The position numbers and the translations under genes were made by a program. The notes below the pieces were generated by a model. That model searched no databases. It saw only the letters and a program-made list of their open reading frames with translations, and was not told the origin of the DNA. DNA of 64,000 bases, taken from NCBI GenBank assembly GCA_022826245.1, contig JAJDVG010000037.1:7470-71469 (forward strand). Direction: 5' to 3'. Shown piece after piece: positions 5,541 to 52,694 of the stretch (its first letter is position 1; every line of letters begins with the position of its first letter). Origin of the DNA: Gammaproteobacteria bacterium. GTDB lineage: Bacteria; Pseudomonadota; Gammaproteobacteria; Steroidobacterales; Rariloculaceae.

Positions 5541-5570
5541 GAAGTATGCTTTGCATCACTTCATATATGA
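5541..5570 (+). promoter_or_regulatory. Palindromes upstream of vapB-1 (candidate antitoxin operator / -10 region)
   Basis: GAAGTATGC-ttt-GCATCACTTC imperfect inverted repeat followed by the perfect palindrome TCATATATGA, in an AT-rich stretch just 5' of the likely start at 5579. Confidence 0.3.
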
Positions 5571-5578
5571 TGACCACG

Positions 5579-5818
5579 ATGCCTCGAACCACAATCTCGA
5601 TGCCGCAAGACTTGGCTGACATGGCACAACGCGAGGCGCATCGCCGTGGCGTGAGTCTGTCGGCGGTGGTTCGCCAGGCGCTGGAGCAACATCTCTATCG
5701 ACACCGGGGGCGCAAGCTGCCGTGGCAGGGTCTGGTGGATCGCGACGGCCCTGCTGCGCGGGACCTCGATGCCGAACTGAATCGCGACTGGCCGACCGAC
5801 ATTGCTCGCGATCGCTGA
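5579..5818 (+). CDS. vapB: Ribbon-helix-helix (CopG/VapB-type) antitoxin
   Basis: MPRTTISMPQDLADMAQREAHRRGVSLSAVVRQALEQHL is a typical RHH N-terminus; the 3' end overlaps the PIN gene by 17 nt. The start could be as early as 5546. Confidence 0.75.
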   Translation: MPRTTISMPQDLADMAQREAHRRGVSLSAVVRQALEQHLYRHRGRKLPWQGLVDRDGPAARDLDAELNRDWPTDIARDR

Positions 5819-6209
5819 CAGCGGCCCGTTGGTAGCGTCGGTCAACGTTGCAGACCCCGATCATGCAGCGTGCGTCAAGGCCTTGTCAGGTGGCGGAATC
5901 GACATCGTCATACCGGCATTGTGCGTGGCCGAAGTCGCCTGGTTTCTTGGCAAACGCCACGGCGCGGACATCGAAGCCGTTTTTCTGGAAGGGTTGACGG
6001 ATTTCCCGGTGATTGCGCCTGACCCGGATGACTGGATGCGCATTGCAGGCCTCGTTCGCCGGTACGCGGACTTGCCGCTGGGCACCGTGGACGCGTCCGT
6101 GGCCGTGTTGGCGATGAGGCTCGGCACCGACCATATCATCACGCTCGACCGCCGGCACTTCACCGTCCTTCGCAATGCACAGGGCAAGCAATTCCAGCTT
6201 TCCCCCTGA
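5802..6209 (+). CDS. vapC: PIN-domain ribonuclease toxin VapC
   Basis: 135 aa with the conserved acidic residues in the expected places (LAIADSG, CVAEVAWF, TVDASV, TLDRRHF). Confidence 0.85.
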   Translation: MLAIADSGPLVASVNVADPDHAACVKALSGGGIDIVIPALCVAEVAWFLGKRHGADIEAVFLEGLTDFPVIAPDPDDWMRIAGLVRRYADLPLGTVDASVAVLAMRLGTDHIITLDRRHFTVLRNAQGKQFQLSP

Positions 6210-6397
6210 CAGCCTCCAGGACTGTGCCCGGGCATGTGTTTCGTCCGCTAACACCGGAAACTGTATCGAGTGGCGGCAAGACCCGCACAAGGAGAGGGAC
6301 GGCAGCACCAGGACGACCTGGCCGAGCACAAATTGGTGTCGTGCAGATAATGCTCTATGCTAGCTTTAGAGATCAGGACGACACTACGGAGTCATCG

Positions 6398-6859
6398 ATG
6401 CACCGCTCGAAATCCTTCTTCAAGACGGTAGCCCTCCTCGGCCTCGCAGTACCGGGCATCGTCATGGCGCACCATACCTGGGTCGTTGAATATGACCGCG
6501 AAGATGTCATCATCCTCGAAGGGACGGTCACCGAGGTCCAGTTGACGGCCCCGCACAGCCGGATTTTCTTCGCGGTGGAAGGGGTTGACGGAACCGCCAT
6601 CTGGGCGGGCGAATCCTGGCCGCTTGGGGCACTGTATCGGCGCGGTTTGACGAACAGCAGCCTGTCGGTGGGCGATGTGGTCCGGGTTACCGGCGAACGC
6701 GCCCGGGGCGGCCGCCTGGGCTTGCACCTCAGAAGCATCTACCGGCCCGCCGATGAATGGAGGGTCTGGATAGGACTTCGCCAGGACACGGGCGAAAATT
6801 CGTCCGCCGGGATCGGCGAAGGGGTGAATCAGGTTCAGCTTGAAGACGAGTCGGTCTAG
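6398..6859 (+). CDS. Secreted small protein, DUF6152-like (module copy 1)
   Basis: Signal peptide ends VMA|HH. Shares HHxxxxxYD...GTVTxV...PH...GDxVxVxG with ORFs 11760..12179 and the N-terminal part of 43198..44211. ATG at 6398 has ACGGAG upstream. Confidence 0.7.
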   Translation: MHRSKSFFKTVALLGLAVPGIVMAHHTWVVEYDREDVIILEGTVTEVQLTAPHSRIFFAVEGVDGTAIWAGESWPLGALYRRGLTNSSLSVGDVVRVTGERARGGRLGLHLRSIYRPADEWRVWIGLRQDTGENSSAGIGEGVNQVQLEDESV

Positions 6860-7572
6860 TGTTTGGTCAAATGGAATTCAGTCGCGTCGGCGGGTCCCGG
6901 AGGCTGATTCGGATGTGTGGAAAATCGCTCGGCCTCGCGCTTGGCCTGCTTGTGCTTCTGCCCGCGTGGGGCCATGAACCGCGACCCGCCCGAGACCAGA
7001 TGACGGATGTCTGGGTCCGGGCCGTCGGCGGCGTCGATCTCCCCGACATTTCAAATGTCACGCCTGCAGGCCAGGCTGTCATGGACGCTTACGATCATCT
7101 CACGGACGACATTCAGCGTTGCCTCATGGACTGGGGTCGTGTGAACACCGTCGCCCGGTTTCCCATGGAACTCATCGTCGCGGAGAACCAGGTCACCATC
7201 CTCTACGAATACAACCATACGGTGCGCCGTGTTTACCTCGATCAGACCGAATTTCCCGACGATTACCCTCCAAGCCTGGTCGGGTACTCCATCGGTCGTT
7301 GGGACGGCGACACGCTGGTGGTGGAAACGCGCAATCTGCTGCCGGGCTGGATCAACATGGAGGGCGTTGCGCCCTATTCGGGCGCAGCGGTGGCGACGGA
7401 ACGGTTCACGCTGGATCCTGAACAGCAAGTGCTGACGGTCGAACGCACGGTGACAGACCCGGATTACTACTCGGGCCCGGTCACATGGACAACCGTGTAC
7501 ACGCCGTCCGAGTTTCCGATCTATCCGTACGATTGCACTGTCGGTTCCTACGGGTCCAATCCTGAAGGCTGA
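6859..7572 (+). CDS. Secreted partner protein of unknown function (module copy 1)
   Basis: Signal-like LGLALGLLVLLPAWG. Motifs RCLMDWG, GYSIGRWDGDTLVVETR, ERFTL, VTDPDYYSGP and DCT are shared with 12237..13112 and the C-terminal part of 43198..44211. The GTG at 6859 overlaps the upstream stop; ATG 6913 is an alternative start. Confidence 0.7.
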   Translation: MFGQMEFSRVGGSRRLIRMCGKSLGLALGLLVLLPAWGHEPRPARDQMTDVWVRAVGGVDLPDISNVTPAGQAVMDAYDHLTDDIQRCLMDWGRVNTVARFPMELIVAENQVTILYEYNHTVRRVYLDQTEFPDDYPPSLVGYSIGRWDGDTLVVETRNLLPGWINMEGVAPYSGAAVATERFTLDPEQQVLTVERTVTDPDYYSGPVTWTTVYTPSEFPIYPYDCTVGSYGSNPEG

Positions 7573-7573
7573 G

Positions 7574-8770
7574 GTGCCCACGAACCGTTCCGGCGCCAGG
7601 ATTGCCGGCCTCGCCACGGCCGTGTTCGCAGCTTGCGTCATGCTGTCCGTTGCTCGGGCAGCGGAGTACTCGTGGGAGGTGGCCGGCAGCCATGTCGACG
7701 GCGATTCCGGCAGCGCCGTGCAAACCAACCATTCGGCGCTGCACGCGACCTGGTACCCGTCCGCGGTCGATGACGCGGTCGGTCCTTTTGAACTCGCGCC
7801 GTTTCTTAACCGCAGCAGCTATGTGACGGTCGTGGCGGGGCGCACGAAACTGCGCGAACCTTTGCTCTGGTCCTCGTTTGCAAGCGATCCCTTTTCCCGG
7901 CCGGCGGATCTGGTCGGCATGGGCATACCCGCCGAGGACGTGTTTCCGGTCTTCGGTGCGCCGTTTCCCGCGGAATCCGGTGTCGATTCATCGGAGTACG
8001 CCGTGGCCGGGCGCTACGTATGGCCGGACACCGGCTGGTACGCCGGCGCCCAGGTCCAGCAGAGCGGCGGCGATCTGCTGCCGGGTTTCTGGCTCGCACG
8101 ATCCACACTCGACCAGGACAGCAGCGAAGTGTTCGCCGGCAGGTATTTCGGTTCGCGAACCACGCTGGAACTGGCTCTCGGCTCGGGAGACGTGGACCAG
8201 GAATCGCGGACGACGCTGTCGTTGGGCATCGATCCCTTACCCGATTTCTCGCCCTTTCCCCCCGCAGTCGAACCCCTGGACTTCCGCATCGGAACGCGCG
8301 TCGAGTCGGAGAGCGCGCGGCTGTCGGTTCGCCACGCAGGCGATTTCGGCGACTCGGCCTTTGCGGTGTCGGCAAGCGTACGTCACAGCCGGTCGGAAAC
8401 ACGACTGTTCGGACTCTCGCCATTCGAGGATTTTCCTCCGGCAATCTCCATGGACCCGCCGGACCGGTTCTTCGTCGGCTCCGGCGCGCCATTGACGGCG
8501 ATCGGGTTTTCACAGACCGAACGTGAGCGTGAATTGCGTCTGTCGGGTACGTTGTTCCCGACCGACGCCCTGGGGGTACGCTTGGCGTTCTCAAGCTCGG
8601 ACCACGATACGTACGGAACCGGCGACACGGTCGACTTGTCGGCAACATGGTTTTTCGTTCGAAACGCGGCCCTGGAAATCGGGCTGAGCCGCACGGATTC
8701 CAGCCGCCCGTACGGTTCCGATTCGCGCGACATGGATTCGATCGCCGTGCGCCTGCTCGGCCGGTTCTGA
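7574..8770 (+). CDS. Outer-membrane porin-like beta-barrel (putative general porin family)
   Basis: Signal peptide, alternating beta-strand pattern, C-terminal ...AVRLLGRF ending in Phe. The GTG start lies 1 nt after the upstream stop. Confidence 0.6.
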   Translation: MPTNRSGARIAGLATAVFAACVMLSVARAAEYSWEVAGSHVDGDSGSAVQTNHSALHATWYPSAVDDAVGPFELAPFLNRSSYVTVVAGRTKLREPLLWSSFASDPFSRPADLVGMGIPAEDVFPVFGAPFPAESGVDSSEYAVAGRYVWPDTGWYAGAQVQQSGGDLLPGFWLARSTLDQDSSEVFAGRYFGSRTTLELALGSGDVDQESRTTLSLGIDPLPDFSPFPPAVEPLDFRIGTRVESESARLSVRHAGDFGDSAFAVSASVRHSRSETRLFGLSPFEDFPPAISMDPPDRFFVGSGAPLTAIGFSQTERERELRLSGTLFPTDALGVRLAFSSSDHDTYGTGDTVDLSATWFFVRNAALEIGLSRTDSSRPYGSDSRDMDSIAVRLLGRF

Positions 8771-8816: not shown

Positions 8817-8819
8817 CGA

Positions 8820-10707: not shown

Positions 10708-11142
10708 ATGGACAAATTCGACGCAGCAATTATCGATGCGCTTCAGGCGAACTCGCGCCAGAGCTGGGTGCGGCTAGGTGAACAGGTCAACCTCTCGCCC
10801 AGCGCCTGTCAACGACGCGTCGAGGCTCTGCAGAATGCCGGTGTGATCGAACGTTTCACATTGACCCTCAACGAGAAGGCGCTCGGACACAAGGTGAAGG
10901 CTTTCGTGGCGGTGACCGTCGATCGCCAGAACCCGAAGCTCGCCGAATCGTTCCGCCGTTGGGCGGTCGTTCATCGGCAGGTCAAGGCCTGCCATATGAT
11001 CTCCGGAATCAGCGACTATATGCTCGAAGTGGTGGCGACCGACCTGGAGGCCCTTGGCCACTTTCTCGAATCGGAACTCCTGGACCTCGAGTCGGTGAAA
11101 GACGCCTCTTCATCCATTGTGTTGGGGCGAATCAAATCATGA
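10708..11142 (+). CDS. Lrp/AsnC-family transcriptional regulator
   Basis: MDKFDAAIIDALQANSRQSWVRLGEQVNLSPSACQRRVEALQNAGVI plus a C-terminal RAM-like domain; divergent from the VOC gene. Confidence 0.9.
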   Translation: MDKFDAAIIDALQANSRQSWVRLGEQVNLSPSACQRRVEALQNAGVIERFTLTLNEKALGHKVKAFVAVTVDRQNPKLAESFRRWAVVHRQVKACHMISGISDYMLEVVATDLEALGHFLESELLDLESVKDASSSIVLGRIKS

Positions 11143-11239: not shown

Positions 11240-11662
11240 ATGTCAGCTCTCCAGGAACTCGCGAGGTCGCGCACGAAGGCCAAGGCCGCTGCAAAAAAAC
11301 TTGATGTTGCAGCGCTCAAGAAACTCATCGAATCCTTGACTATCGCGTTGCAAGCAGAAGAAAAACGCCTGAAAGACAAGGCAGAGCGCGAAAAACAAAA
11401 CAAGATAAAGAAAATCAATCAATTGTTGGCCGAAAGCGGTCTTTCCGTCGCTGACCTGCAGAAAGCCCCTGCGGGCCGTGGGCGCCGCAAGACAAGGACG
11501 CGGCGACGCGTCACCAAGCGCCGCAAGGTGCCGCCGAAGTACCGCCTGGTCGTGGCCGGCGTGGAGCATCTCTGGAGCGGCCGCGGGCGCGCGCCAAGGG
11601 TATTTGCCGATCACTTCGCCGCGGGCAACAGCCGCGAGAGTGTCGAGATTCCCAAGGATTGA
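11240..11662 (+). CDS. H-NS-family nucleoid-associated protein
   Basis: Lys/Glu-rich coiled-coil N-terminus, basic linker, C-terminal KYRLVVAGVEHLWSGRGRAPRVF matching the H-NS TWxGxGRxP DNA-binding motif; the gene is AT-richer than its surroundings. Confidence 0.8.
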   Translation: MSALQELARSRTKAKAAAKKLDVAALKKLIESLTIALQAEEKRLKDKAEREKQNKIKKINQLLAESGLSVADLQKAPAGRGRRKTRTRRRVTKRRKVPPKYRLVVAGVEHLWSGRGRAPRVFADHFAAGNSRESVEIPKD

Positions 11663-11759: not shown

Positions 11760-12179
11760 CTATTGCCCTCTGCTCGACCCGGCAAGCATCCGCTGGCCCG
11801 TTGCGGTCATTATGATCGTCTCCGCGTTCGCGAGCGGGCTGCCGTCTCTCGCATGACTGCCCTCAACGGTAATCTCGTCTCCGGGTTGCAGGGAATCGCG
11901 TTTCCAGCCCAGGCGCAGCAATGAATTCGGACCCCCCATCTCGAGCGCCCAGTTCACGACTTCGCCGCTCTCTTCATCGGCCACGTCGATATAGATGAAG
12001 ATGTGCGGATTGGTCCACTCGACATCGGTGACCGTTCCCGTCAAGTGAACGGGTTTCGATTCATCGTATTGCGCCGGAAAGGAATGGTGAGCGGATGCCG
12101 GCAGCGCGGCCGCGAGCGTCGCAAGCGGCAACGCGATCGCGACGGCGCGGATGGTCGTGTTTGCTGTGAGCGTCTTCAT
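11760..12179 (-). CDS. Secreted small protein, DUF6152-like (module copy 2)
   Basis: Signal peptide ends ASA|HHSF; HHSFPAQYD...LTGTVTDVEWTNPHIFIYIDV...PGDEITVEG. Confidence 0.75.
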   Translation of the reverse strand: MKTLTANTTIRAVAIALPLATLAAALPASAHHSFPAQYDESKPVHLTGTVTDVEWTNPHIFIYIDVADEESGEVVNWALEMGGPNSLLRLGWKRDSLQPGDEITVEGSHARDGSPLANAETIIMTATGQRMLAGSSRGQ

Positions 12180-12236
12180 TTTTCGTCCTTTGGATTTGTT
12201 GCGCCGACGGTATCGATCGCACCGACAGCCGAAAAA

Positions 12237-13112
12237 CTAGAACGGAAGTTTCATTCGCTCGACGAACTGTTCGTTTTCCAGACAGATTTCATCGATCAGC
12301 TCTGCATCGATGACGATACGCTGCCGCAGCGTAACCGACCAGGGTTCGGTATAGGCTCTTGGATCATCAACGGTAATTCGAATATCAAGGTGGCCGAAGT
12401 CCGGACGGCTGATCTCTTCCCTGACCCTGGCCGCCTCGGTAACCACGCTGCCGTTCCAGTCGATCCAGGTGTCGTCGCGTATGCCGATCGTATCGATGAC
12501 GAGCGTATCGCCCGACCATTGCGCGGATGAAAACCCCTGCCACGAGGGCGTCGGCTCGTCCGGCAATTCGCGGCCGTCGACAAATACCTGCCGGTATCCG
12601 GCGTTCATCTCGTTCAAAACGACCAGCAGTTCCGGCGTGTGCACGAACTTCAACATGTGCGGAAGCCCGTAGGCGCGAACGAAATTGTCGGGCAGACAAC
12701 GAATGTGCGGATCCTCTATGGCCATGTTGGCGGTGCGTTCCGCGACGATCGGCAACTGCCACTCCTGGTAGGGCAAGCCGTCCGGCATGTCGGCGCCCAT
12801 ATCCGCCATGAAGCGGGAGGAACCGAGGTTGAAACCGTCGCTGGGCGACTCCTCGCCTTCGGGCGTGTTGTCGGATATCCAGATCCCGGAAAGATCGGGT
12901 CTGCCGTCGGGCATCCGCGGCGCCGGCGCCGTCATGTCGACCGAGCCGTCGGCCCTGCGCGGTACGTTCGCCGTCGGGTAGCCTATCCACTGGGCGGTGG
13001 AAGGTGTCGCGAGCAGCAACGTCCCGACCACGATCGCAGAAAGAGAAACGAACCGTGAACCATTTCGACTTCTGCAAAGCAGCACGGCTCGGAACGGGCG
13101 GGAGTAAAGCAT
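12237..13112 (-). CDS. Secreted partner protein of unknown function (module copy 2)
   Basis: Signal-like N-terminus; motifs IRCLPDNF, QGFSSAQWSGDTLVIDTIG, VDDPRAYTEPW and ICLE shared with the other two copies. Confidence 0.7.
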   Translation of the reverse strand: MLYSRPFRAVLLCRSRNGSRFVSLSAIVVGTLLLATPSTAQWIGYPTANVPRRADGSVDMTAPAPRMPDGRPDLSGIWISDNTPEGEESPSDGFNLGSSRFMADMGADMPDGLPYQEWQLPIVAERTANMAIEDPHIRCLPDNFVRAYGLPHMLKFVHTPELLVVLNEMNAGYRQVFVDGRELPDEPTPSWQGFSSAQWSGDTLVIDTIGIRDDTWIDWNGSVVTEAARVREEISRPDFGHLDIRITVDDPRAYTEPWSVTLRQRIVIDAELIDEICLENEQFVERMKLPF

Positions 13113-13274
13113 ATGCGCTCCCCTTTTCGGCTCGCCAGGGCGGTGAAAACGGCTAAAAGCGACTATCTACCGAGAGTAGATTGCCATCCTTGGGGGGTCA
13201 AGCGGAGTTCGGTCGGATCGGGCTGAGGCGCATCGGGCCGCTATGATATGAACCGGAAAGCGGAGGTATCTGCT

Positions 13275-14366
13275 ATGGATACGAGAACAAACCGGATCCT
13301 CCTGCCGTTGCTGACGGCCGTACTTGCGGCCTGGGCGGCCGCAGCCTTTGCACAGCACGGCAATGGCAATCCGGACATGGCGCCGACCAACGACCTGCCG
13401 AATCCCTTCTCCGACAGGGCGGTCATGCCGCTGCCCGACGGCCGAAGCTGGGGGTCGACCGCCGGCGTCGATGCCGCGAAGGGCCGGGACGACATCTGGG
13501 CCATCGACCGCTGCGGCAGCAACGGCTGCGTGGGATCGGACGCCGACCCCCTCATGCACTACGACGCGAACGGCAACCTCATCGGCCAGATGGGAGCGGA
13601 TCTCTTCGCCTTTCCGCACGGCATTCACGTCGACGCCGAGGACAACGTGTGGGTCACCGATCCGCTGCCGCCCGACGGCCGCGGCGCCGGCGGCGATGTC
13701 GGGCAACAGGTCACGAAGCTCAGTCCGGATGGCGAGATTCTGCTTCAGCTCGGTACGCTCAAGGTGACCGGCGACGGCCCCAACGAGTTCAGTTCCCCGT
13801 CCGATGTCGTCGTCGGCGACGATGGCGACATCTTCGTCGCCGACGGCCACGGCGAGGGCACCAACGAGCGCATCATGAAGTTCGACCGCAGCGGCAACTT
13901 CATCATGGCGTGGGGCCGGCCGGGCAACGGCCCGTGCGGAGCGGGCGAGTTCTCGAGCCTGCACGCGCTCGCGATCGATTCGCGGGGACGTCTCTTCATC
14001 GGCGATCGCGACAACAACCGGATCCAGATCTACGACCAGGACGGCAATTACCTCGATTGCTGGTACCAGTTCAGCCGCCCGAGCGGGATATACATCGACG
14101 CCGACGACAGGCTGTTCGTCGCCGATTCCGAGTCCCGAGACGGCGCCGACGACGGCATGGACCTTGCCCACCCCGGATGGCAGCGCGGAATCCGGATCGG
14201 CAGCGCCCGCGACGGCATCGTCAGGTATTTCATCCCCGATCCCGACCCGCGGGGCGGCAGCAGCGCGGCCGAGGGCGTCGCGGCCGTCCGGGGCGGCGCC
14301 GTCGTCTACGGCGCCGAAGTGGGACCGCGGGCCTTCGTCCGCTACGACCGGCGCCGATCGCCTTGA
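13275..14366 (+). CDS. Secreted NHL-repeat beta-propeller, peptidyl-alpha-hydroxyglycine alpha-amidating lyase (PAL)-like
   Basis: FAFPHGIHVDAEDNVWVTD, FSSPSDVVVGDDGDIFVADGHG..RIMKFDRSGNF and FSSLHALAIDSRGRLFIGDRDNNRIQIYD resemble PAL/NHL blades. Signal peptide present; GGAGG lies 8 nt before the ATG. Confidence 0.7.
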   Translation: MDTRTNRILLPLLTAVLAAWAAAAFAQHGNGNPDMAPTNDLPNPFSDRAVMPLPDGRSWGSTAGVDAAKGRDDIWAIDRCGSNGCVGSDADPLMHYDANGNLIGQMGADLFAFPHGIHVDAEDNVWVTDPLPPDGRGAGGDVGQQVTKLSPDGEILLQLGTLKVTGDGPNEFSSPSDVVVGDDGDIFVADGHGEGTNERIMKFDRSGNFIMAWGRPGNGPCGAGEFSSLHALAIDSRGRLFIGDRDNNRIQIYDQDGNYLDCWYQFSRPSGIYIDADDRLFVADSESRDGADDGMDLAHPGWQRGIRIGSARDGIVRYFIPDPDPRGGSSAAEGVAAVRGGAVVYGAEVGPRAFVRYDRRRSP

Positions 14367-14473
14367 CCAACAAGGCCGATACGCTTGCTCGGACCGCGAC
14401 GGCGCTTGCGCTCCGCGGCATCGGGCTTACGGTGTAGACTTGCGGCATGAATCTTCTTTCGGGAGAAACGAAC

Positions 14474-14989
14474 ATGAAACGGCTGGTACTCGGCCTCGTG
14501 ACCATGCTGCTCGCGGCGCAACTGCAGGCACAGGCGCTCGGACCCGGCGACACTCCACCGAACTGGACCGGCCGGGACTTTTCCGGGCAGATGCTCGAAT
14601 ATCCCGAGGTTCTCGACGGCAATCCGGCCGTCATGGTGTTCTGGGCGACCTGGTGCGGCTATTGCCGGGCCTTCATGCCCTACCTCAAGGACATTTCCGC
14701 CGACTATGCCGCGCAGGGCGTCAGCATCGTCGCGGTCAATGCCAAGGAGGACGGCTCGGGCGATCCCGTTGCCTACGTCCGCGGCCTCGGCTTCGATCCC
14801 GTCGCGGTCGCCGACGGCGATGCCATCGCCGACGCCTGGGGCATCCGCTTCATCCCGGGCCTGCTGATCGTGAACGGCGACGGGACGGTCGCCTGGCAGC
14901 GGGACTGGACCGACCTGCCGGCCGGCCGCACGGTCGCGGAGCTATGGGACGGCCAGGTGCGCGAGCAGCTCGATCGTCTATTGCTCTGA
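14474..14989 (+). CDS. TlpA-like periplasmic thioredoxin-fold protein
   Basis: Signal peptide plus the FWATWCGYCR active site. Confidence 0.8.
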   Translation: MKRLVLGLVTMLLAAQLQAQALGPGDTPPNWTGRDFSGQMLEYPEVLDGNPAVMVFWATWCGYCRAFMPYLKDISADYAAQGVSIVAVNAKEDGSGDPVAYVRGLGFDPVAVADGDAIADAWGIRFIPGLLIVNGDGTVAWQRDWTDLPAGRTVAELWDGQVREQLDRLLL

Positions 14990-36601: not shown

Positions 36602-39600
36602 TCAGAAGCTGAATCGCGCTCCAAGCGTGTAGCGCCGGCCGATCAGGTCGTGGAACGCGTTCGTCTGCGTCGCGTTGGCGCCGAAGTAGCCGAAGTTCGC
36701 CGAGATCGGCGGATCCTCGTCGAACAGGTTCTGCACATTGCCGTACAACTCCAGCGTCCCTTCTCCCACAGCGAGGTCATAGCGCAGGTTTGCGTCGACA
36801 TAACTCACCGACTCGATCGTGTTGTTGTCGATGTGTACGCCTTCGGTCTCGAGCACGTCACGCACGCCCCCGTCGATCCAGCGCGCCTGGATGAACGCCC
36901 GGAACGCCCCCCTGCGATAGTTGAACTGCGCCGTGATCTTTTCGGTCGGCAGGTCGAAGCCGCCGTATATCTGGCCCGCGCGATCGATCCTCGGCGAGTC
37001 GAAACCCTGGAACGAGTTTTCGGCGAGGTGAGTCGCGAGCAGGCGAATGCCCAGTTGCTCGCCGCCGCCGAACCAGTCGACGTCGGAGCGGTAGCTGACC
37101 TCGAAATCCGCGCCCTCGACGGTCGCGTTGGCGACATTGAGGAAGTTGGCCGAGACGACGTTGATGGCGCCGGGCGTGCCGTCGGGAAGGTCCGGCTGAC
37201 GGGTGATCAGCGGGCAAAGCGACACGTCGCCGATGTGACATTGGTCGACGATCTGCTGAGGCGTCAACTCCGCGATCGCATCGACGAGATCGACCTGGAA
37301 CCAGTCGATGGACACGGACAATCCGGGCGTCCCGGTCGGCTGAATCACGAACCCCATGGTGACCGTATCGGCTTCCTCGGGGCGAATGTTCGGGCTACCG
37401 CCGGTCGTGCGGAAGATCTGGAAGCGCTCGTTGTTTCTGGCCGGATCCTGCACCGAGGAAGCGCCGCCCGTCTGGTCGAAACGCTCCGAGAGCGTCCCGG
37501 CCCTGACGTCGCGCGAGCGCGTAGCCCTTAGACGCAGCGCATCGGTGAGCTGCGAATCGACGCCGGCCTTCCAGACCCACACGCCGCCCGAACCGGAGTA
37601 GTCCGCCCAGCGCGCGGCAACCGGGATATTGAGCCTGTTGTCGGCAAGCACGGGTACGAAAACCTCGCCGAACACCTCGGAAACATCCCTTGCGCCGGTG
37701 ACGTTCGGTACCTTCGAGTACTGGATGACGACCGAATTGTTCAAGTCGCCGCGAGGCATCCCCCGTATGCCGGCCGGGGCGTAGTTCATCGGCACCGGCC
37801 GCCCGGAATCGTGGTTGCCGTCGAGAATCCCCGCGCTCAACTGCGTGCCGTCGGGCGCGAAATACGGCCCGACCGGCGTGCGCGCGATCTGGTTCATCGA
37901 CTCTTCGCGCCAGCCGGCGCCGAACGCGACGCCGATCGCGCCAACCTCGCGGTCGTCGAAGAGCTCGCCGGTCATCGAGAACTCGATGACATCCTGTTCG
38001 ATCCACGAGCGGGTGATCCGGCCTTCTTCGGTGACGTAAGTGTCCGTCACGCCGAGATCGAAACCCTGCTGGGCGTAGTAGATGGGCGTCGTGACTGTCT
38101 GACCCGGGTCGAAACCCGTGACCCAGTCGATCGCGGCGTCGGACATGTTGCCCCGGCCGAAGGGATTCATCGGCACGCAGTCGGGGAACATTGCCCCCTG
38201 AGTCACGAGCGTGACGTTACAGACGATCTGGCCCGTCGCAGGATCGACCACGGCATCGTGAGCCAGGTGGATGCGGTCGAGGCGGATGCCGCCGAGTTGC
38301 CTGATCAGCGTCGTGGTTTCGCCCTGCTGAACGAAGGCGTCGACGCTCCAGCCGTCGAAGACGCCGCCACCGGACAGTTCCGCCTCAAGTCCAAGCGTCG
38401 TCGACTCGAACTCGACGTCGAGCGCGAGCGCAGCGCCGCCGCGCTTGAGGTCGGACGAATGGCCCATGCGATTGAGGTTGAAGCACGGTACCGCGTCCGG
38501 CGCAGCGGATGGCTGGCCGTTGATGCCGCAACGCCTGGAGTAGCCCGGGTCGTCCAGCACCGCCTGAATCTCCGGCGGCAGGAAGGCATTGCCGCTGTAG
38601 ATGACCATCGGCGAGAACGGCCCGTGGAACTGCCCGGCGATGTTCAGTTGCGTTCTGAACGACTCCCCGCGCAGTGCCTGCGCAAAGAGCGTGACATTGT
38701 CGCCCGCGTCGTAACTCAACCGCAGGAACTGGTTTTCCCGATCATAATCCGTCGTCAGATTCGGCAAATCCGCACCCATGTCATCGCCTTCGCCGACACC
38801 GCCGGCGATCGACTGCGACAGCCCCGGTTGTCCCGGAACGAGTCCGAACGGCGATACCGCCGTGCCCGCGGAATTGAAATTGTGATTGTGCAGCGGCGTG
38901 CCGGGCGCGAAGATGAGGCCGTCGAAGGTCGCCGTCCTCGATACGACATTGGGACGTACCAGTTCTCTCGGCCCGCTCGGGTCCGGATTGATGATGATGC
39001 CCCAGTTCTGGTACCAGTCCCGCCCTTCGTAAGTATGGATGCCGTCCTGAGTGTAGGTATCGACCGAAAAGAGCAGGTGCATGCGCTCGCCGATCGCGAA
39101 GCCGCCCGCAAATGAGGCTTCCCAGTTGTCGCCGTCGCCTTGGGCCGACTGGCCCGATTGGGCGTGGCCCCTGAGCCCCTCGAGATCCGTATCGAGGATG
39201 AAGTTCACGACGCCGGTGACGGCGTCCGTGCCGTAGGCGGCCGATGCTCCGCCCGTTACGGTCTCGACCGAGCGGAGCAATGCTTCCGGAAACGCGCTGA
39301 TGTCGGTGCCGCCGAATCGCGTCGAGGACACGACCCGCCGCCCGTCGAGCAGTACGAGCGTCCGCTTCGTACCGATGCCGCGCAGGTCCAGGTTTCCGGA
39401 ACCCGGGCTCGAGAAGAATCCGCCGGGATCGTTCGGCGTTCGATTGTTGTAGAACAGGGGCAACTGGCTAAGCGCTTCGATCACGTTGCCGGGCGCCATG
39501 AGATCGATATCCTCGCGGCCGACGACCGTCACCGGCGTGGGCGTATTCATGCCCGATGTCTGCTGGATGCGGGAGCCGGTTACCGTGACTTCCTCAAGCT

Positions 39601-39736
39601 GCGCGTCCTGGGCCATGCCGGTCGTGTGGCCGAGCCCGAGCGCAGTAAGGCAGGCAAATGCCAGCGGTTTGAGAACTGGTGTGGGCCGAGTCATTGAAAT
39701 ACTGCCAATAGGCAAACGTCGCATCGTATGCGTCAT
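36602..39736 (-). CDS. TonB-dependent outer-membrane receptor (large, about 1040 aa)
   Basis: Signal peptide, EEVTVTGSRI plug start, long beta-barrel ending ...YTLGARFSF. The start is uncertain (39736, 39724 or 39694). Confidence 0.85.
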   Translation of the reverse strand: MTHTMRRLPIGSISMTRPTPVLKPLAFACLTALGLGHTTGMAQDAQLEEVTVTGSRIQQTSGMNTPTPVTVVGREDIDLMAPGNVIEALSQLPLFYNNRTPNDPGGFFSSPGSGNLDLRGIGTKRTLVLLDGRRVVSSTRFGGTDISAFPEALLRSVETVTGGASAAYGTDAVTGVVNFILDTDLEGLRGHAQSGQSAQGDGDNWEASFAGGFAIGERMHLLFSVDTYTQDGIHTYEGRDWYQNWGIIINPDPSGPRELVRPNVVSRTATFDGLIFAPGTPLHNHNFNSAGTAVSPFGLVPGQPGLSQSIAGGVGEGDDMGADLPNLTTDYDRENQFLRLSYDAGDNVTLFAQALRGESFRTQLNIAGQFHGPFSPMVIYSGNAFLPPEIQAVLDDPGYSRRCGINGQPSAAPDAVPCFNLNRMGHSSDLKRGGAALALDVEFESTTLGLEAELSGGGVFDGWSVDAFVQQGETTTLIRQLGGIRLDRIHLAHDAVVDPATGQIVCNVTLVTQGAMFPDCVPMNPFGRGNMSDAAIDWVTGFDPGQTVTTPIYYAQQGFDLGVTDTYVTEEGRITRSWIEQDVIEFSMTGELFDDREVGAIGVAFGAGWREESMNQIARTPVGPYFAPDGTQLSAGILDGNHDSGRPVPMNYAPAGIRGMPRGDLNNSVVIQYSKVPNVTGARDVSEVFGEVFVPVLADNRLNIPVAARWADYSGSGGVWVWKAGVDSQLTDALRLRATRSRDVRAGTLSERFDQTGGASSVQDPARNNERFQIFRTTGGSPNIRPEEADTVTMGFVIQPTGTPGLSVSIDWFQVDLVDAIAELTPQQIVDQCHIGDVSLCPLITRQPDLPDGTPGAINVVSANFLNVANATVEGADFEVSYRSDVDWFGGGEQLGIRLLATHLAENSFQGFDSPRIDRAGQIYGGFDLPTEKITAQFNYRRGAFRAFIQARWIDGGVRDVLETEGVHIDNNTIESVSYVDANLRYDLAVGEGTLELYGNVQNLFDEDPPISANFGYFGANATQTNAFHDLIGRRYTLGARFSF

Positions 39737-40109
39737 TATCTGTTCCCCCCGAGGTGTTGCGGCTTCGATGCAGCGCCCCTCCATGCCGCCCGAAGCTTCG
39801 TTGTAATCCTGCGCTGTAGCGCGGTTCATGTTGTTGTATCGAGCATACGCTCTTGCCCACGCCAGTCAAGTTAGCGGCCGGCCTGCCACCTGCGGGGTGT
39901 CGATAGCCATGTTCCGGAGCCTGCCGATGAGTACAATCTGCGAATCCCCGAACGAACTGCCGTTACGAAGAAACACCAACTGAAGTGCGTTCGCGGCCTG
40001 GGACTGCGTTCTGACTTCGGCGCGCGGGGGAGCGCGGCGATGGCGCCGCGTACCAGGCAACATTTGTAAACCGCGAACCGGCTCACATGCCGGTTTGCAG
40101 GAGATGCCG

Positions 40110-41465
40110 ATGACCCGACTCGCAACCGCCTTCGCAAGCGCTTTGCTGTGCCTTGCGGCCTTGCAGGGATCGACCTCGCCGTCTGTCTATCCGACCGGTA
40201 CGACAATCTACGATCCGGAGCGTGCCTGGAACGGCTACACCGTGCTCTCGCCGCTTTCGGCCGGGGCCGCCGTCGTCATCGACATGAACGGCAACGTCGT
40301 CAAGCGCTGGGACGATTACAACAACGCGGCCGGGGGGCCTGCGCGGGTACTGCCGGGAGGCGGGATCGTCGCAGCCTCAGGCGCACGACCGCCGCACCAG
40401 GAAGCGCTCGAACTCGTGCAACGCGATTTCTACGGCGAGACGGTCTGGAGTTTCGGCCGGAACGAGCAGGTCGAAACACACGACGGCGAGACGGTCTGGT
40501 CGTCACGCCAGCACCATGACTGGCAGCGCGCCGACTTTCCGGCCGGCTACTACTCGCCCGAAGCCGAACCTGCAACGACGGGCGCCAACACACTCCTGCT
40601 GACCCACACCAACCGCGTCGAGCCCAACGTGTCCGACGTGCTGCTCGAGGACGACCGCATCATCGAGGTGTCGCCCGACGGCGAGATCGTCTGGGAATGG
40701 ATCGCGAGCGAACACATCGACGAACTGGGTTTCGACGCGGCGGCGCGTGCCACGATCGCCACGGCACCGGGCTTCAGCGCGGCGCGCGGCTCCTTCGACT
40801 GGCTGCACATCAACTCCGTGACCTACGTCGGACCCAACCGCTGGTTCGATGCGGGCGATCAACGGTTCGCGCCCGACAACGTGATCGTCAGCGGCCGTGA
40901 GGGCAACCTGATCGCCGTGATCGCGCGCGACGGATCGATCGTCTGGCGCCTCGGCCCTGAATTCGACGAATCCGAGGAACTGCTCGCCATCGGCCAGATC
41001 ATCGGCCAGCACAAGCCCCATATCATCCCGAAGGGTCTGCCCGGGGCCGGCAATGTGCTCGTCTTCGACAACGGCGGTGCGGCGGGCTACGGCGTTGCGA
41101 GCCCGGTTGCTCCGGACGGCGACAACATCTATGCACGGACGTCGTCGCGCGTGCTCGAAATCGATCCGCTGACGCTCGAACTCGTCTGGTCCTACGCGTC
41201 AGCCAGCTTCCTGAGTTGGAACATCAGCAGCGCGCAGCGGCTCGCCAACGGCAATACGCTCATCACCGAAGGCGCGAGCGGACGCCTCTTTGAGGTGACG
41301 AGCGACGGAGACATCGTATGGGAGTACATGTATCCGCACGATGAAGGGGGGCGCAACGACGTCTATCGGGGCTACCGCCTGCCCTACGGGTGGATCCCGC
41401 AACTCGACCGGCCGGAAGAACTCTCCGTGACGCCACCGCCGCCCGGTGAGTTCCGGGTACCGTAG
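40110..41465 (+). CDS. Secreted arylsulfotransferase (ASST)-family beta-propeller protein
   Basis: Signal peptide; FDWLHINSV, NVLVFDNG and repeated IVWEW/IVWEY blades typical of aryl-sulfate sulfotransferase-like proteins. CAGGAG lies before the ATG at 40110. Confidence 0.65.
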   Translation: MTRLATAFASALLCLAALQGSTSPSVYPTGTTIYDPERAWNGYTVLSPLSAGAAVVIDMNGNVVKRWDDYNNAAGGPARVLPGGGIVAASGARPPHQEALELVQRDFYGETVWSFGRNEQVETHDGETVWSSRQHHDWQRADFPAGYYSPEAEPATTGANTLLLTHTNRVEPNVSDVLLEDDRIIEVSPDGEIVWEWIASEHIDELGFDAAARATIATAPGFSAARGSFDWLHINSVTYVGPNRWFDAGDQRFAPDNVIVSGREGNLIAVIARDGSIVWRLGPEFDESEELLAIGQIIGQHKPHIIPKGLPGAGNVLVFDNGGAAGYGVASPVAPDGDNIYARTSSRVLEIDPLTLELVWSYASASFLSWNISSAQRLANGNTLITEGASGRLFEVTSDGDIVWEYMYPHDEGGRNDVYRGYRLPYGWIPQLDRPEELSVTPPPPGEFRVP

Positions 41466-41550: not shown

Positions 41551-43164
41551 GTGAACTACGATCTCAGGACTTTCCGGGGCGATCTCTTCGGCGGTCTCAC
41601 CTCAACCGTCGTCGCGCTGCCCGTGGCACTGGCGTTCGGAATCGCGTCGGGCCTCGGGGCAGCCGCGGGCCTGTACGGCGCGATCGCTGTCGGCTTCTTC
41701 GCCTCGGCCTTCGGCGGCACCCGCTCGCAGATATCAGGTCCCACACCATCGATGACCGTCGCCATGGCGGTCATCGTCACGTCCCACGCGACGACGTTGA
41801 CCGAAGCCCTGACGGTGGTCGTCATGGGCGGCTTGCTCCAGGTGCTGCTCGGTCTCTTCAGGTTCGGCCGCTACATCGTCTATACGCCCCATGTCGTCAT
41901 CTCCGGGTTCATGTCGGGCATCGGCATCATCATCATGCTCATCCAGGTGTTGCCGTTCATCGGGGCGCCTACGTCTCCCGAGGGGCCCATGGGCGCAGTT
42001 CGCGACCTGCCGGCGGCGCTCGGCAACATCAACGCGAGCGCCGTGGCGATCGCCCTCGTGACGCTCGGGATCGGTATCGTCTGGCCGGCCCGGTTGTCGC
42101 GCCTGCTGCCGGCGCCGATCGTAGGCCTGATCGCGGGCACGCTGCTCGGCGTGCTGTGGCTCACCGATGCGCCGGTCATCGGCCAGATCCCGGCCGGACT
42201 GCCCGCGCTCCGGTTCGAGTTGCCCTCGTTCGCCTTCCTGATCGCCGCGATCCATCCTGCGATCATTCTTGCCCTGCTCGGCTCCGTCGACAGTCTGCTG
42301 ACTTCGCTGATCGCCGATTCGCTGACCGGAACGCGCCACAATCCGGACCGGGAACTCGTCGGGCAGGGGCTCGGCAACATGGTCGCGGGACTGTTCGGAG
42401 GGCTGCCCGGCGCGGGCGCCACGATGGGCACGGTGACCAATATCCGGGCCGGCGGCCGGACCCAGGTATCGGGGATCCTCAGGGCCGTCCTGCTGCTCGC
42501 CCTGCTGCTCGGACTCGGCCGGCTCGTCGAACCGATTCCCCATGCCGCACTTGCGGGGATCCTCATGAAAATCGGCTGGGACGTCATCGACTGGCGGATG
42601 CTCCGCCGCACGCACCGAATTCAGGCGCACTACATGTTCATCATGGTGACGACGCTGTCTCTGACCGTGTTCGTGGATCTCGTCACGGCCGTTGCCATCG
42701 GGCTCATCGCCGCGGGACTTGCCCATGCGCGGCAACTCGAGGGTCTGGAACTCGACAGCGTGGTCTCGGTACCGATGCTCGATCAGACGTTCTTTGCCGG
42801 CATGGAGCGGATGGCGAACGACGACCCGCTCGCGGCGCGAGTGGGCCTGGTGGCGCTGCGCGGAACCTTCACCGTGGCGTCGTCACACAAACTGGTCACG
42901 GTCATGAGCGTGGACATTCGCGATCACGATGTCGTCATCTTCGATTTCTCGGGAGCAACCCACCTGGACGACAGCGCGGCCATGGTCATAGAGCAACTCA
43001 TCGACGTAGCGCGCAGGGCGGACACCGAGATCATCATCATCGGGCTGTCGGGCACCGTGGGCCATACGCTCGAAACGCTCAACGTCCTGCGCAAGGTGCC
43101 GACGGAACGCATCGTCGACACGCTCGATGAGGCGCGGGAGATCGCCGCGGATCTGCTTGATTGA
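41551..43164 (+). CDS. SulP-family anion (sulfate/bicarbonate) transporter with C-terminal STAS domain
   Basis: DLFGGLTSTVVALPVALAFG, multiple TM helices, and a STAS-like C-terminus (VVIFDFSGATHLDDSA). Confidence 0.9.
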   Translation: MNYDLRTFRGDLFGGLTSTVVALPVALAFGIASGLGAAAGLYGAIAVGFFASAFGGTRSQISGPTPSMTVAMAVIVTSHATTLTEALTVVVMGGLLQVLLGLFRFGRYIVYTPHVVISGFMSGIGIIIMLIQVLPFIGAPTSPEGPMGAVRDLPAALGNINASAVAIALVTLGIGIVWPARLSRLLPAPIVGLIAGTLLGVLWLTDAPVIGQIPAGLPALRFELPSFAFLIAAIHPAIILALLGSVDSLLTSLIADSLTGTRHNPDRELVGQGLGNMVAGLFGGLPGAGATMGTVTNIRAGGRTQVSGILRAVLLLALLLGLGRLVEPIPHAALAGILMKIGWDVIDWRMLRRTHRIQAHYMFIMVTTLSLTVFVDLVTAVAIGLIAAGLAHARQLEGLELDSVVSVPMLDQTFFAGMERMANDDPLAARVGLVALRGTFTVASSHKLVTVMSVDIRDHDVVIFDFSGATHLDDSAAMVIEQLIDVARRADTEIIIIGLSGTVGHTLETLNVLRKVPTERIVDTLDEAREIAADLLD

Positions 43165-43197: not shown

Positions 43198-44211
43198 CTA
43201 TTGCCTGTCGGCGGGAAGCTCGCAGTTGAACGGCATGACCTGCTGGCCGGGAATCCAGGTCCAACGGACTTCCATGGGTACGGGTTCGGTGAAGTTCACC
43301 GGATCGACTACTTCTCCCTCCCAGACAAGATCCGTACCGTCCTCGCTCAGGATGAACCGTTCGTTGATGACCACATCCTCGCTTTGCGGCGTGCCGATGT
43401 CGTCGACGTAGCGCCAATCGATGTCCCGGGTTTCCACGACAAGCGTATTGCCCTCCCAACGACCGACGGAGCGCCCCATCCGCGGCTGCGACGGCTCCCC
43501 GTCGCCATCGAGATGGATCACCCGTTCGCCGTCCCACTCCTCCAGCCGCATGAGGATGGCCCCGCCCCGGTCTTCGAAGGACACGGGATACGGGTTGGCC
43601 ATGACGGTCGGCATCCCCGGCGGAATGCACTCGAGCGCCGGGTCCTCCTCCGGATCCCACAGGGCCTGAACGGCCCGCCCGGCCTCGGTCAGCGGATAGC
43701 CGGAACCGCCGTCCATGGACAGGGCATTCCTGAACGTAACCGGCACCCAGACCCGGAAGATGTCCGCACGCAAGGACGCGTCGGCAGTGTCGGCCTCGCG
43801 CTGCGCGTTCTCCGTGATGTTGTAGCGGCGGTCGGTCTCCGCCTGCAGGGCCACTTCCCGACCGTCGGGCAGGACGATCCCGGTCGCGAACATGGCCGTC
43901 AGTCCGTTGCGTCCCATGCTCCCGGAAACGGACACGCGGTCGCCTACAGCCAACAGATCCCTGGAGACGCCGAGGCGCACGACCGTATTGACCGAACCGA
44001 ACTCGATCTCCCACTCCTCGTCTTGCCCGCCTTCGCCGCTGCGGCTCAAGAGCAGGCGCACGTGGGGATTTCGCCAGAAGACGTCGGTGATCTCGCCCTC
44101 TATCGTCCCCTGGTCGTTGGGATCGTAGCGCCCGATCTCCGCGTGATGCGCCGTTGCAGCGATGGCCGCCAGGGAAGCCGCCAGAAGCAAGCCGATTTGA
44201 AGGCCGCGCAT
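43198..44211 (-). CDS. Secreted fusion protein: DUF6152-like N-domain plus partner-family C-domain (module copy 3)
   Basis: Signal peptide ATA|HH. N-terminal part: HHAEIGRYD...IEGEITDVFWRNPHVRLLL...VGDRVSVSG. C-terminal part: LECIPPGM, GRSVGRWEGNTLVVETRD, NERFIL, VVDPVNFTEP and NCE. Confidence 0.7.
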   Translation of the reverse strand: MRGLQIGLLLAASLAAIAATAHHAEIGRYDPNDQGTIEGEITDVFWRNPHVRLLLSRSGEGGQDEEWEIEFGSVNTVVRLGVSRDLLAVGDRVSVSGSMGRNGLTAMFATGIVLPDGREVALQAETDRRYNITENAQREADTADASLRADIFRVWVPVTFRNALSMDGGSGYPLTEAGRAVQALWDPEEDPALECIPPGMPTVMANPYPVSFEDRGGAILMRLEEWDGERVIHLDGDGEPSQPRMGRSVGRWEGNTLVVETRDIDWRYVDDIGTPQSEDVVINERFILSEDGTDLVWEGEVVDPVNFTEPVPMEVRWTWIPGQQVMPFNCELPADRQ

Positions 44212-44223: not shown

Positions 44224-44640
44224 CTACAGGCGAACGATCCGGCGGGAATTCATCGGCGCCAGAACGAACGATTCGAGCGAATCCGCGGTCAGTGGCAGAA
44301 AATCGCGTTGAGCGGCGAAGTAGAGCACGTTCTCGCCGAACATCCTGAGTTCGTACGCCCGCTGCCGGTCGATGAGGCCCGCAACGGGAGGCCGGACATC
44401 GGCGGTGCAAATGCCTTTCAATGACCGGTACCACAACGCGTCGGTACGCCCGCTGAACTCCACGACCGTTGCTCCCCGGACCCCGAGTTTCCCGGCAAAG
44501 GCCATGGATTCGGAGTGTTTGGGGTCCGCGAGTACGACCCAGCCGTTCAGGTCGTTCGTGCGCGCAGCCAATGTAGCCGGCACGGCGCCGAATGCCACCG
44601 AAAGGCCCGCGGATTTAATCAGGTCACGCCGAGTGAGCAT
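44224..44640 (-). CDS. Small Tat-signal protein of unknown function
   Basis: MLTRRDLIKSAGLSVAFGAVPATLAA twin-arginine motif; ends 12 nt upstream of the fusion gene. Confidence 0.55.
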   Translation of the reverse strand: MLTRRDLIKSAGLSVAFGAVPATLAARTNDLNGWVVLADPKHSESMAFAGKLGVRGATVVEFSGRTDALWYRSLKGICTADVRPPVAGLIDRQRAYELRMFGENVLYFAAQRDFLPLTADSLESFVLAPMNSRRIVRL

Positions 44641-44801
44641 GCGGTCACCTCAAGTTGTGTCCGCAGATCATACACGAAGGCCAGCTACGGATACGCCAGC
44701 GCGCGAACGATCTTGCAGTGCGGATTCCCGCCTGCGACACTCGGCCCCTGCCGGCGCGTGCGCCGTGCAGATTGGACGAATTCACTCGAAGGACGATTCC
44801 A

Positions 44802-51409: not shown

Positions 51410-52333
51410 TCACTTGCCGAGTATCCGGCGTTCAATGAGATCGGAGAATGCAGGGTTGAGCTCGATGCCCACCCACCGCCTCCGCAGACACTCGGCAGCG
51501 AGCAAAGTCGTGCCCGAGCCCGCGTACGGATCCAGAACGACGTCATCAGGAGCGCTGGTTATCGAAACACAGCGTCGCGCAAGCGTGAGAGGCATCATGG
51601 CCGGATGGTCGTCAACCTCGCCGTTTTTGCGCTTGACGGGCTCCGTGGGTATCTACCAGACGGTACGCAGCCTCCTGTTGTTGGGGCCGACAACCGCACT
51701 CGTGTCGTAGTAATAGTCCTGTTCCTTCGAGAGCAGGAACACTGTTTCGTGAGCCTTGGTGGGCCGATCCCGCACCGATTCGGGATGGGCGTTGGGTTTG
51801 TGCCAGACAACTTCGCTACGGATCCACCAGCCGGCATCCTGGAGCGCAAGTGCCAGGCGCCACGGAACGCCAATGAGGTCCTTGGGCTTCAGTCCGTCCG
51901 GCGTACGCGGTCGAACGCCCATGGCTCGCACACGGTTCTTGCGGTCCGGCGCGCGATAGCGCCTGTTGCCGGACGTATAGGAATCGCCGACGTTGAGCCA
52001 CACCGTCCCGTCTCGCCGAAGCACGCGACGCAACTCGTCGAAGGCTTCGACGATGCTGTCGATGTAGGAGCGCAAGGTGTCGTCACGCCCGATCTGATCA
52101 TCGACCTGGTAGTCCCTGAGGGACCAGTACGGCGGCGAGGTCACGACAGTTTGCACGGACTCCGTCGGCAGCAGGCTCAGCGCGCTCCGGGCATCGCCAC
52201 AGATCAACAGGGATTCCGAGATTTCAGTCAGTTGGCGGGAACTGTCCGTAAGGCGCCGGTAGGGACCTGGAGCGAACAGCGCGGGCGTCGGCAATGCGCT
52301 GTCGACGTCCGGCTTGGTGGGTGCGTCGCTCAT
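51410..52333 (-). pseudogene. Beta-class DNA methyltransferase (SPPY motif IV, N4-cytosine-like) interrupted by one in-frame TAG
   Basis: Track ORFs 51653..52333 and 51410..51598 are in the same frame. Across the TAG at 51653-51655 the translation reads ...RRLRTVW*IPTEPVKRKNGEVDDHPAMMPLTLARRC...VLDPYAGSGTT. Motif IV (TSPPYW) precedes motif I. Confidence 0.8.
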
Positions 52334-52619: not shown

Positions 52620-52631
52620 GTTCGGTCTCGC

Positions 52632-52689: not shown

Positions 52690-52694
52690 CGAAC

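Follow-up and report, generated by a model that had tools for sequence, protein, structure and literature searches.

A secreted DUF6152 protein and a putative beta-barrel partner form a widespread gene pair that is joined only locally by a porin gene

A stretch of 64,000 nucleotides from contig JAJDVG010000037.1 of a Rariloculaceae genome (Gammaproteobacteria; assembly GCA_022826245.1), here called the window, carries three consecutive open reading frames (ORFs) on the same strand, which encode a DUF6152 protein (ORF1), a secreted protein of a second family that we call the partner (ORF2), and a porin (ORF3). An original prediction, made from these letters alone, had read the three genes as a dedicated envelope system in which two periplasmic proteins have an outer-membrane channel of their own. 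We report here that, on comparative sequence evidence, DUF6152 and the partner are a unit which is found, often as a fusion, in thousands of soil and marine bacteria, and that the attachment of the porin is a local arrangement at the species level. The window is chromosomal and carries GlnE, GroEL, DsbD, AccC, PurH, PurD, Rho, and AlaS. Judged by homology the three ORFs are genuine genes and not chance reading frames, because ORF1 matches DUF6152 and a sequence search returned 1,266 homologues of ORF2 and 106 of ORF3. Reading of the sequences confirmed the Sec-type signal peptides expected on all three products (...GIVMA/HH, ...LLPAWG/HEP, and ...SVARA/AEY), with cleavage being predicted from sequence patterns alone. 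The features are listed in Table 1.

Analysis of the junctions supported the proposed tight packing only in part: the coordinates and the single base between 7572 and 7574 stand, but an overlap of ORF1 with ORF2 probably does not. Nucleotide G6859 is common to the TAG stop of ORF1 (6857-6859) and to a GTG codon, and a start at this GTG merely yields the mechanically longest ORF. Alternatives are ATG 6871 and ATG 6913, the latter with GGAGG at 6899-6903, 9 nt upstream. When read from ATG 6913 ORF2 has the size of its 219 amino acid orthologues and of the 219 amino acid call on the 88.6-kb NCBI/ENA contig, while gene callers gave products of 219, 233 or 237 amino acids on related contigs. Since ATG 6913 is preceded by GGAGG and the 219 amino acid partner starts 53 nt after the DUF6152 gene in the orthologous loci, the overlap is probably not real; the start of ORF2 is uncertain, and the true gap is probably these 53 nt, a spacing compatible with an operon. 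At the second junction the TGA of ORF2 (7570-7572) is followed by one base and the GTG of ORF3, which is preceded by GAAGG (7564-7568). The 1 nt gap stands because ACG occupies the position at which a homologue of 71% identity starts. For ORF1 a GGAG at 6388-6391 lies 6 nt before the ATG. Further upstream is an AT-richer block, part of which is kept upstream of orthologues in alignment and which might, tentatively, be a promoter or element of the 5' untranslated region (UTR); a consensus promoter scan of positions 6100-9000 gave no promoter-like site, and terminator-like sites at chance level.

Table 1. Positions of the DUF6152, partner and porin genes and of other features in the window (HMM, hidden Markov model; aa, amino acids).
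Feature	Position	Strand	Remarks
ORF1 (DUF6152)	6398..6859	+	153 aa; Pfam PF19649 match
ORF2 (partner)	most likely 6913..7572	+	219 aa from ATG 6913
ORF3 (porin, Porin_7 / Omp33-36 type)	7574..8770	+	398 aa
Paralogous DUF6152 gene	11760..12179	-	139 aa; PF19649 E=4.6e-31, 107 bits
Paralogous partner gene	12237..13112	-	291 aa; partner HMM E=7e-56
DUF6152-partner fusion	43198..44211	-	one 337-aa ORF; both domain HMMs match
AT-richer block TATGCTAGCTTTAGAGATC, candidate promoter / 5' UTR element	6340..6385	+	alignment to orthologue upstreams
Arylsulfotransferase, near fused copy	40095..41465
SulP/STAS permease, near fused copy	41551..43164
Protein with twin-arginine-like signal	44224..44640	-	138 aa; no Pfam match
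VAO-type FAD protein, near fused copy	44655..46424
TonB-dependent receptor	47851..50139
Second TonB-dependent receptor	36602..39829

ORF1 matches DUF6152 (PF19649) with E=8e-15 and 55.1 bits, above the gathering threshold of 27, and lies within a divergent clade of the family which has TAPH instead of NPH and an additional C-terminal tail. Apart from DUF6152 the Pfam search returned only weak OB-fold families, and sequence and profile searches of the PDB gave nothing credible. The AlphaFold2 model of ORF1 (predicted local distance difference test, pLDDT, 81) is a barrel of five strands, with a helix inserted between the third and the fourth, and its top Foldseek matches were the OB-folds of lysyl-tRNA synthetases (LysRS) and single-stranded-DNA-binding proteins (SSB). 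An OB-fold is therefore predicted for ORF1, the matches identifying the fold only and not a function. His-His was present in all 169 unique DUF6152 domains recovered from the 160 loci described below and was usually followed by Ser; the residue at -1 was Ala, Gly or Ser in 167 of 168 domains, and a hydrophobic run was found upstream in 163 of the 169. Because of the invariant His-His, the small residue at -1, and the hydrophobic run, mature DUF6152 should start with His-His-Ser. In ORF1 the predicted mature N-terminus is His25-His26 (codons 6470-6475), and two further invariant elements are Pro52-His53 (6551-6556), which is the Pro-His of the family's NPH loop after strand 1, and Glu72 (6611-6613) in strand 3. 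Alignments of the family show in addition an invariant Asp eight residues after His-His. The C-terminal tail of ORF1 (residues ~118-153, 6749..6856) has low confidence in the model and occurs in ORF1 and 42 close relatives while being missing from other DUF6152 proteins. The idea that its sequence (...ADEWRVWIGLR...), set beside ...ADIFRVWVPVT... in the fused paralogue, is a fusion linker or what is left of strand 1 of the partner was rejected as the match was not significant (E ~1-7).

A profile of the partner family searched against 1.84 billion cluster representatives identified 18,471 relatives at E ≤1e-3 and 11,331 at ≤1e-10, and the family comprises about 18,000 clusters at 50% identity. 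Many of the top-scoring relatives are proteins of 450-530 amino acids with two partner barrels in tandem, so the barrel family also duplicates internally. None of 44 partner members matched any Pfam model, NCBIfam and PADLOC gave no match, and the sole PDB match below E=0.01 in sequence and profile searches was a capsid protein (E=0.0011), which was taken as spurious. These profile searches place the ORF2 family nowhere, which bears out the proposal that it lies in no well-characterised enzyme family, and ORF1 and ORF2, for which no characterised function had been suggested, accordingly represent two uncharacterised secreted families. The model of ORF2 (pLDDT 85.8) has a helical N-terminal region followed by an antiparallel barrel of eight to nine strands, and the best Foldseek matches in the PDB were the retinol-binding CRBP, the retinoic-acid-binding CRABP and the fatty-acid-binding FABP (E ~1e-3; template-modelling (TM) scores of 0.5-0.62 on the target and 0.4 on the query). 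ORF2 is thus predicted to be a calycin/FABP/lipocalin-like beta-barrel. In the 219 amino acid numbering Cys70 (7120-7122) and Cys208 (7534-7536) are invariant, and the family also conserves a Trp, an Arg, GxSxGxW-GDTLVV, Glu-Arg, and Asp-Pro, together with a GxW that precedes strand 1; apart from the two Cys, which probably form a disulfide, no His, Met or Cys is conserved. Lipocalins have such a GxW as well, and the predicted antiparallel barrel preceded by helices bears a weak structural resemblance to calycins (FABP/CRBP/CRABP, bacterial lipocalins, ZinT/YodA). ORF2 shows only 8-15% identity to these in structural alignments with no significant sequence match, exceeds them by ~60 residues, and differs from them in its invariant Cys pair and in its coupling to an OB-fold protein.

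The association of the two families was analysed from both sides. On the partner side 80 species-level loci were fetched by means of the partner motif, deriving from Gammaproteobacteria (including Rariloculaceae and Steroidobacteraceae), Acidobacteriota, Caulobacteraceae, Sphingomonadales, and Gemmatimonadota, and on the DUF6152 side 80 metagenome loci were fetched by the DUF6152 motif. As the first DUF6152 alignment was too divergent to seed the metagenome scan a narrower one was used, which samples the WTNPH clades and not the TAPH clade of ORF1. It should be noted that the motifs were short and that on each side the 80 top hits were taken from over 600, so that percentages derived from these loci are not unbiased. 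All ORFs of the 160 loci, taken from stop to stop, were scanned with HMMs built for this analysis. Adjacency was defined as fusion or a distance of ≤400 bp on the same strand, an arbitrary limit, and genes at contig edges were excluded on the DUF6152 side. By this definition 62 of the 71 assessable DUF6152 genes had a partner gene fused or adjacent, while on the other side 64 of 135 partner genes (80 species) had a DUF6152 gene fused or adjacent. As many as 36 of the 80 partner-sampled loci contained no DUF6152 gene within 8 kb, so the partner must also work without DUF6152. Taken together these counts indicate a one-sided dependence, with DUF6152 nearly always accompanied by the barrel and the barrel family being broader.

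Fusions always had the order DUF6152 then partner (32 of 32) and the order of unfused genes was variable; many of the 1,266 ORF2 homologues also bear PF19649 in the same protein. A mirror-tree comparison gave r=0.74 over 107 pairs, a value that includes shared phylogeny; the highest value among the permutations was 0.16. The counterparts of ORF1 and ORF2 in the orthologous loci (62-81% identity) remain adjacent while their flanks differ wholly, and several copies per genome as well as tandem arrays of the two genes were seen. The expectation that the small-protein family would co-occur with the partner family in other genomes was therefore upheld: the two are found together far beyond chance, are often fused, and co-diverge, and on this comparative evidence DUF6152 and the partner are a unit. 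The recurrence of the pair twice more in the window was recovered as well, at 27-32% identity, with the correction that the third copy is a single fused ORF and not two genes. In the second copy (11760..13112) the order is reversed on the minus strand, partner then DUF6152, and its partner gene product, at 29% identity in the alignment, has the common N-terminal AQW...PDLSGxW motif of the family.

The porin-like nature ascribed to the third ORF was corroborated. Its 106 homologues (32-71% identity) are mostly annotated as PF16956, and the family profile matches the Acinetobacter baumannii Omp33-36 structure (PDB 6GIE) with E=4.9e-9, only the N-terminal ~105 residues being aligned. The hallmarks of an outer-membrane barrel are present, namely the signal peptide (...CVMLSVARA/AEY) and a C-terminal Phe (...VRLLGRF), features shared with Omp33-36 and Porin_7 proteins. 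ORF3 differs from Omp33-36 in being ~100 residues longer and in falling below the cutoffs for both Pfam Porin_7 (PF16956; 24.0 bits, just under the 26.6 threshold) and the NCBIfam equivalog NF033382 (21.5 bits against a cutoff of 400), the latter indicating that it is no Omp33-36 orthologue. From its sequence ORF3 is probably a general outer-membrane porin and an ordinary additional member of the Porin_7 / Omp33-36-type group, whose nearest named relatives are in the gammaproteobacterium Candidatus Rariloculus.

What failed was the claim of a dedicated envelope system with its own channel. The order pair then porin was found only in ~97%-identical contigs (L008 and L009); no porin follows the pair in the five orthologous loci at 62-81% identity (L001, L002, L003, L006, and L012), and no Porin_7 relative lies near the pair in any of the 160 loci, whichever of the two families they were sampled by. 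The closest distinct porin homologue (71% identity; L172) is free-standing and lies behind a ParE toxin-antitoxin pair; the genes beside other homologues are unrelated, and the porin family is multi-copy per genome. Because pair and porin are joined only in genomes nearly identical to this one and the closest homologue of the porin stands alone, the dedicated channel is not conserved, and on these comparisons pair-plus-porin is a local, species-level arrangement. The idea of a three-component system in which the porin serves the two periplasmic proteins as a private channel through the outer membrane could nevertheless draw on the same-strand 1 nt spacing of ORF2 and ORF3 with GAAGG before the GTG, on the retention of the arrangement in the two near-identical contigs, and on a further locus (L011, 5507..7188) in which only 2 nt separate a gene for a SnoaL/NTF2-like small protein from the start of a Porin_7 homologue that is 52% identical to ORF3; set against the absence of the porin from the orthologous and the sampled loci, these leave the idea improbable. 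The L011 coupling hints that the porin family is able to couple to small putative binding proteins. In this species the 1 nt gap makes co-transcription and co-translation of ORF2 and ORF3 plausible, and local co-use of the porin with the pair is possible.

The guanine-plus-cytosine (GC) content over positions 5000-13500 gave no sign of foreign insertion at the porin. Immediately upstream of ORF1 lies a VapBC-type pair on the plus strand, consisting of a ribbon-helix-helix antitoxin (5546..5818) and a PIN toxin (5802..6209). The presence of toxin-antitoxin pairs near ORF1 and near the free-standing L172 porin suggests that these genes lie in rearrangement-prone spots. A role in anti-phage defence, an idea arising from the adjoining VapBC genes, was rejected since all three proteins are secreted and no PADLOC match was found.

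Other neighbours of the pair point to uptake and catabolism. The fused copy in the window lies among genes for an arylsulfotransferase, a permease, a flavin adenine dinucleotide (FAD) protein, and TonB-dependent receptors (Table 1). A small protein without Pfam match is encoded beside it, and L002 also has such an ORF, of 139 amino acids, followed by FAD_binding_4 and cytochrome c genes. Neighbours of the pair in relatives include P450, LigB, aldehyde dehydrogenases, molybdenum hydroxylase, sulfatases, and arylsulfotransferases. In the cultured strain Sphingobium xanthum NL9 there is a cluster partner-DUF6152-DUF6152-partner with a TonB-dependent receptor and two DUF6644 membrane proteins divergent from it, followed by an esterase, a TetR regulator, a P450, a Baeyer-Villiger-type flavin monooxygenase, a short-chain dehydrogenase, and an AraC regulator. 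Clustering of neighbours over the sampled loci revealed no obligate third gene. The most frequent real neighbours were pyrroloquinoline quinone (PQQ) dehydrogenases, present in 14 loci and in some within 4-85 bp; ABC-2 ATPases were found likewise in 14, TonB-dependent receptors in about 21 (directly adjacent in several), and DUF6644 in seven. A module for scavenging or chaperoning a cofactor such as PQQ or haem, imported through the TonB-dependent receptors, might be read from these dehydrogenases and receptors, but as the neighbours are inconsistent in raw counts and the copies in the window do not lie beside PQQ enzymes we regard this explanation as very improbable.

Several side observations were made on the neighbourhoods. 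The DUF6644 genes encode small membrane proteins, are often in tandem and sometimes accompanied by a TonB-dependent receptor (L080 2455..6045, L068, L073, L153, L087, L148, and L084); their occurrence in seven loci of different taxa makes an inner-membrane companion of the pair possible. In L001 (3085..8672) the pair shares its strand with resistance-nodulation-division (RND) efflux genes (membrane-fusion protein and ACR_tran), which end ~100 nt before it; two further DUF6152 genes are found within 16 kb. Between the first and second DUF6152 loci of the window there are plus-strand genes for an Lrp/AsnC regulator and an H-NS-like protein (10708..11142 and 11240..11662) in a stretch of lower GC content (0.52 at 11000-11399), and divergent from the second pair are an NHL-repeat beta-propeller protein and a TlpA/AhpC-like thioredoxin (13248..14989, plus strand); TlpA-like thioredoxins occur near pairs in six other loci. 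Two plus-strand ORFs of the window, at 51605..52762 (385 amino acids) and 60237..62792 (851 amino acids), have no Pfam match at E ≤1e-5.

Comparison with known metal-binding proteins bears on what the pair may do. CusF is a periplasmic OB-fold chaperone for Cu(I)/Ag(I), which binds the metal via one His, two Met and one Trp and passes it on to a partner protein; ZinT, a zinc protein, has a calycin fold. DUF6152 is, on its model and signal peptide, likewise a small periplasmic OB-fold protein; unlike CusF it has no conserved Met pair and thus lacks the His/Met/Met/Trp motif, having instead the N-terminal His-His, and there are neither linked cusCBA genes nor a Pfam or PDB sequence match. A pure metal-trafficking role, with the OB-fold as CusF-like metallochaperone, the barrel as ZinT-like accessory and no organic ligand, would suit the invariant N-terminal His-His together with the further His, Glu and Asp, the position of the L001 pair directly behind RND pump genes, and the recurrent TlpA-like thioredoxins. 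It fits poorly with a partner devoid of conserved His, Met or free Cys beyond its likely disulfide pair, with copA, cus, znu and cop genes not having been seen near the inspected pairs, and with several copies per genome and tandem arrays, which suit substrate diversity better than one metal, and for these reasons it appears unlikely.

Histidine-brace proteins (lytic polysaccharide monooxygenases, LPMOs; CopC, PmoF1, YcnI/DUF1775, and X325/Bim1) resemble DUF6152 in being secreted and in that cleavage exposes an invariant N-terminal His. LPMOs are beta-sandwich proteins and CopC is cupredoxin-like; in contrast DUF6152 is predicted to be an OB-fold, has a second invariant His right after His1, and in Pfam and PDB searches shows no sequence homology to the histidine-brace families (AA9-17, CopC, PmoF1, YcnI, X325), none of which has a counterpart of the obligate barrel partner or fusion. 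In all 169 domains His is the first residue after the predicted AxA-type cleavage site, and a further invariant His and a carboxylate are to hand; from conservation, both His2 and the NPH His are candidates for the second His of a brace. What defines the copper histidine brace is an N-terminal His that chelates via its NH2 and imidazole groups, and the known examples are without exception secreted (PMC10952591). Bacterial representatives other than LPMOs are small proteins located in the periplasm or outside the cytoplasm, and those listed, CopC, PmoF1 and YcnI, are tied to copper transport (PMC10952591). By analogy with LPMOs, the pair could be a two-subunit oxidative enzyme acting on small hydrophobic molecules, a histidine-brace copper centre oxidising a substrate held in the barrel. 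Such sites do support oxygenase and peroxygenase chemistry (PMC10952591), the partner's invariant Arg, Ser, Glu and Asp could make an active site, and neighbourhoods are rich in oxidoreductases. The link of the bacterial non-LPMO proteins to transport and not catalysis argues the other way, as does the lack of a consistently linked electron-donor gene, and we consider this entirely inferential reading quite unlikely.

The interpretation that we favour, to which we would give an even chance, is that of a widespread periplasmic two-protein complex which combines an N-terminal metal site on an OB-fold with a small-molecule-binding barrel and is set among genes for uptake and catabolism. Because the two genes are so often fused or adjacent and have diverged in parallel, we infer strongly that proteins of the ORF1 and ORF2 families would form a periplasmic complex. 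Within it the processed His-His, the His of the NPH loop, the Glu and the Asp would make up a mononuclear metal site on the OB-fold, which by conservation and analogy would be histidine-brace-like, with copper as the first guess. The DUF6152-first order seen in every fusion would follow from the N-terminus having to stay free. Less firmly, the disulfide-stapled barrel of the model may hold a small hydrophobic or aromatic molecule, a ligand suggested by the FABP-like fold and the catabolic neighbourhoods. It is a matter of speculation that the complex might capture, shuttle or oxidise such molecules after their entry via a TonB-dependent receptor or, here, the ORF3 porin, and the module would then feed neighbouring catabolic or uptake genes. 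ORF3 may be co-expressed in this species and supply outer-membrane entry, without being a conserved part of the module.

A number of observations weigh against this interpretation of the pair as a metal-site and ligand-barrel complex. The Foldseek matches from which the folds were assigned are generic and weak (E ~1e-3 to 1e-4; target TM 0.5-0.6), and the partner-sampled loci without DUF6152 and the selection of loci by motif score, both described above, count on the same side. Each of the recurrent neighbours is present in <10% of loci by raw count, in taxa that are in any case rich in TonB-dependent receptors and PQQ enzymes, and no metal-homeostasis gene recurs beside the pair, copA, cus, znu and cop not having been seen in the inspected loci. 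A bolder formulation, that DUF6152 is a new class of metalloprotein with a histidine-brace-type centre on an OB-fold, forming an obligate heterodimer or fusion with a very large and hitherto unrecognised calycin-like family, and that in the periplasm of Acidobacteriota, Gammaproteobacteria, and Alphaproteobacteria the two jointly bind and oxidise, or shuttle, compounds that are hydrophobic or aromatic, is put forward tentatively and with more doubt than belief.

DUF6152 is already catalogued in Pfam, and the partner family has no Pfam model or solved structure; by sequence the pair belongs to no characterised family. The literature searched contained no paper on DUF6152/PF19649, on DUF6644, on Rariloculus, or on a histidine brace on an OB-fold. 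Since the three-gene operon is a species-level arrangement, effort is redirected to the two-gene core. The coupling of DUF6152 with its partner is among the cleaner unexplained gene pairs of environmental bacteria, and the invariant processed His-His offers a concrete hypothesis that is cheap to test, namely a new metal site resembling the histidine brace but built on another fold; genetic work is feasible in a cultured carrier, Sphingobium xanthum NL9. Genes for taking up and degrading aromatic, sulfated, and hydrophobic compounds surround the module, which is found in abundant lineages of soil and sediment bacteria and of symbionts, in which the periplasmic steps that follow TonB-dependent or porin entry are poorly known.

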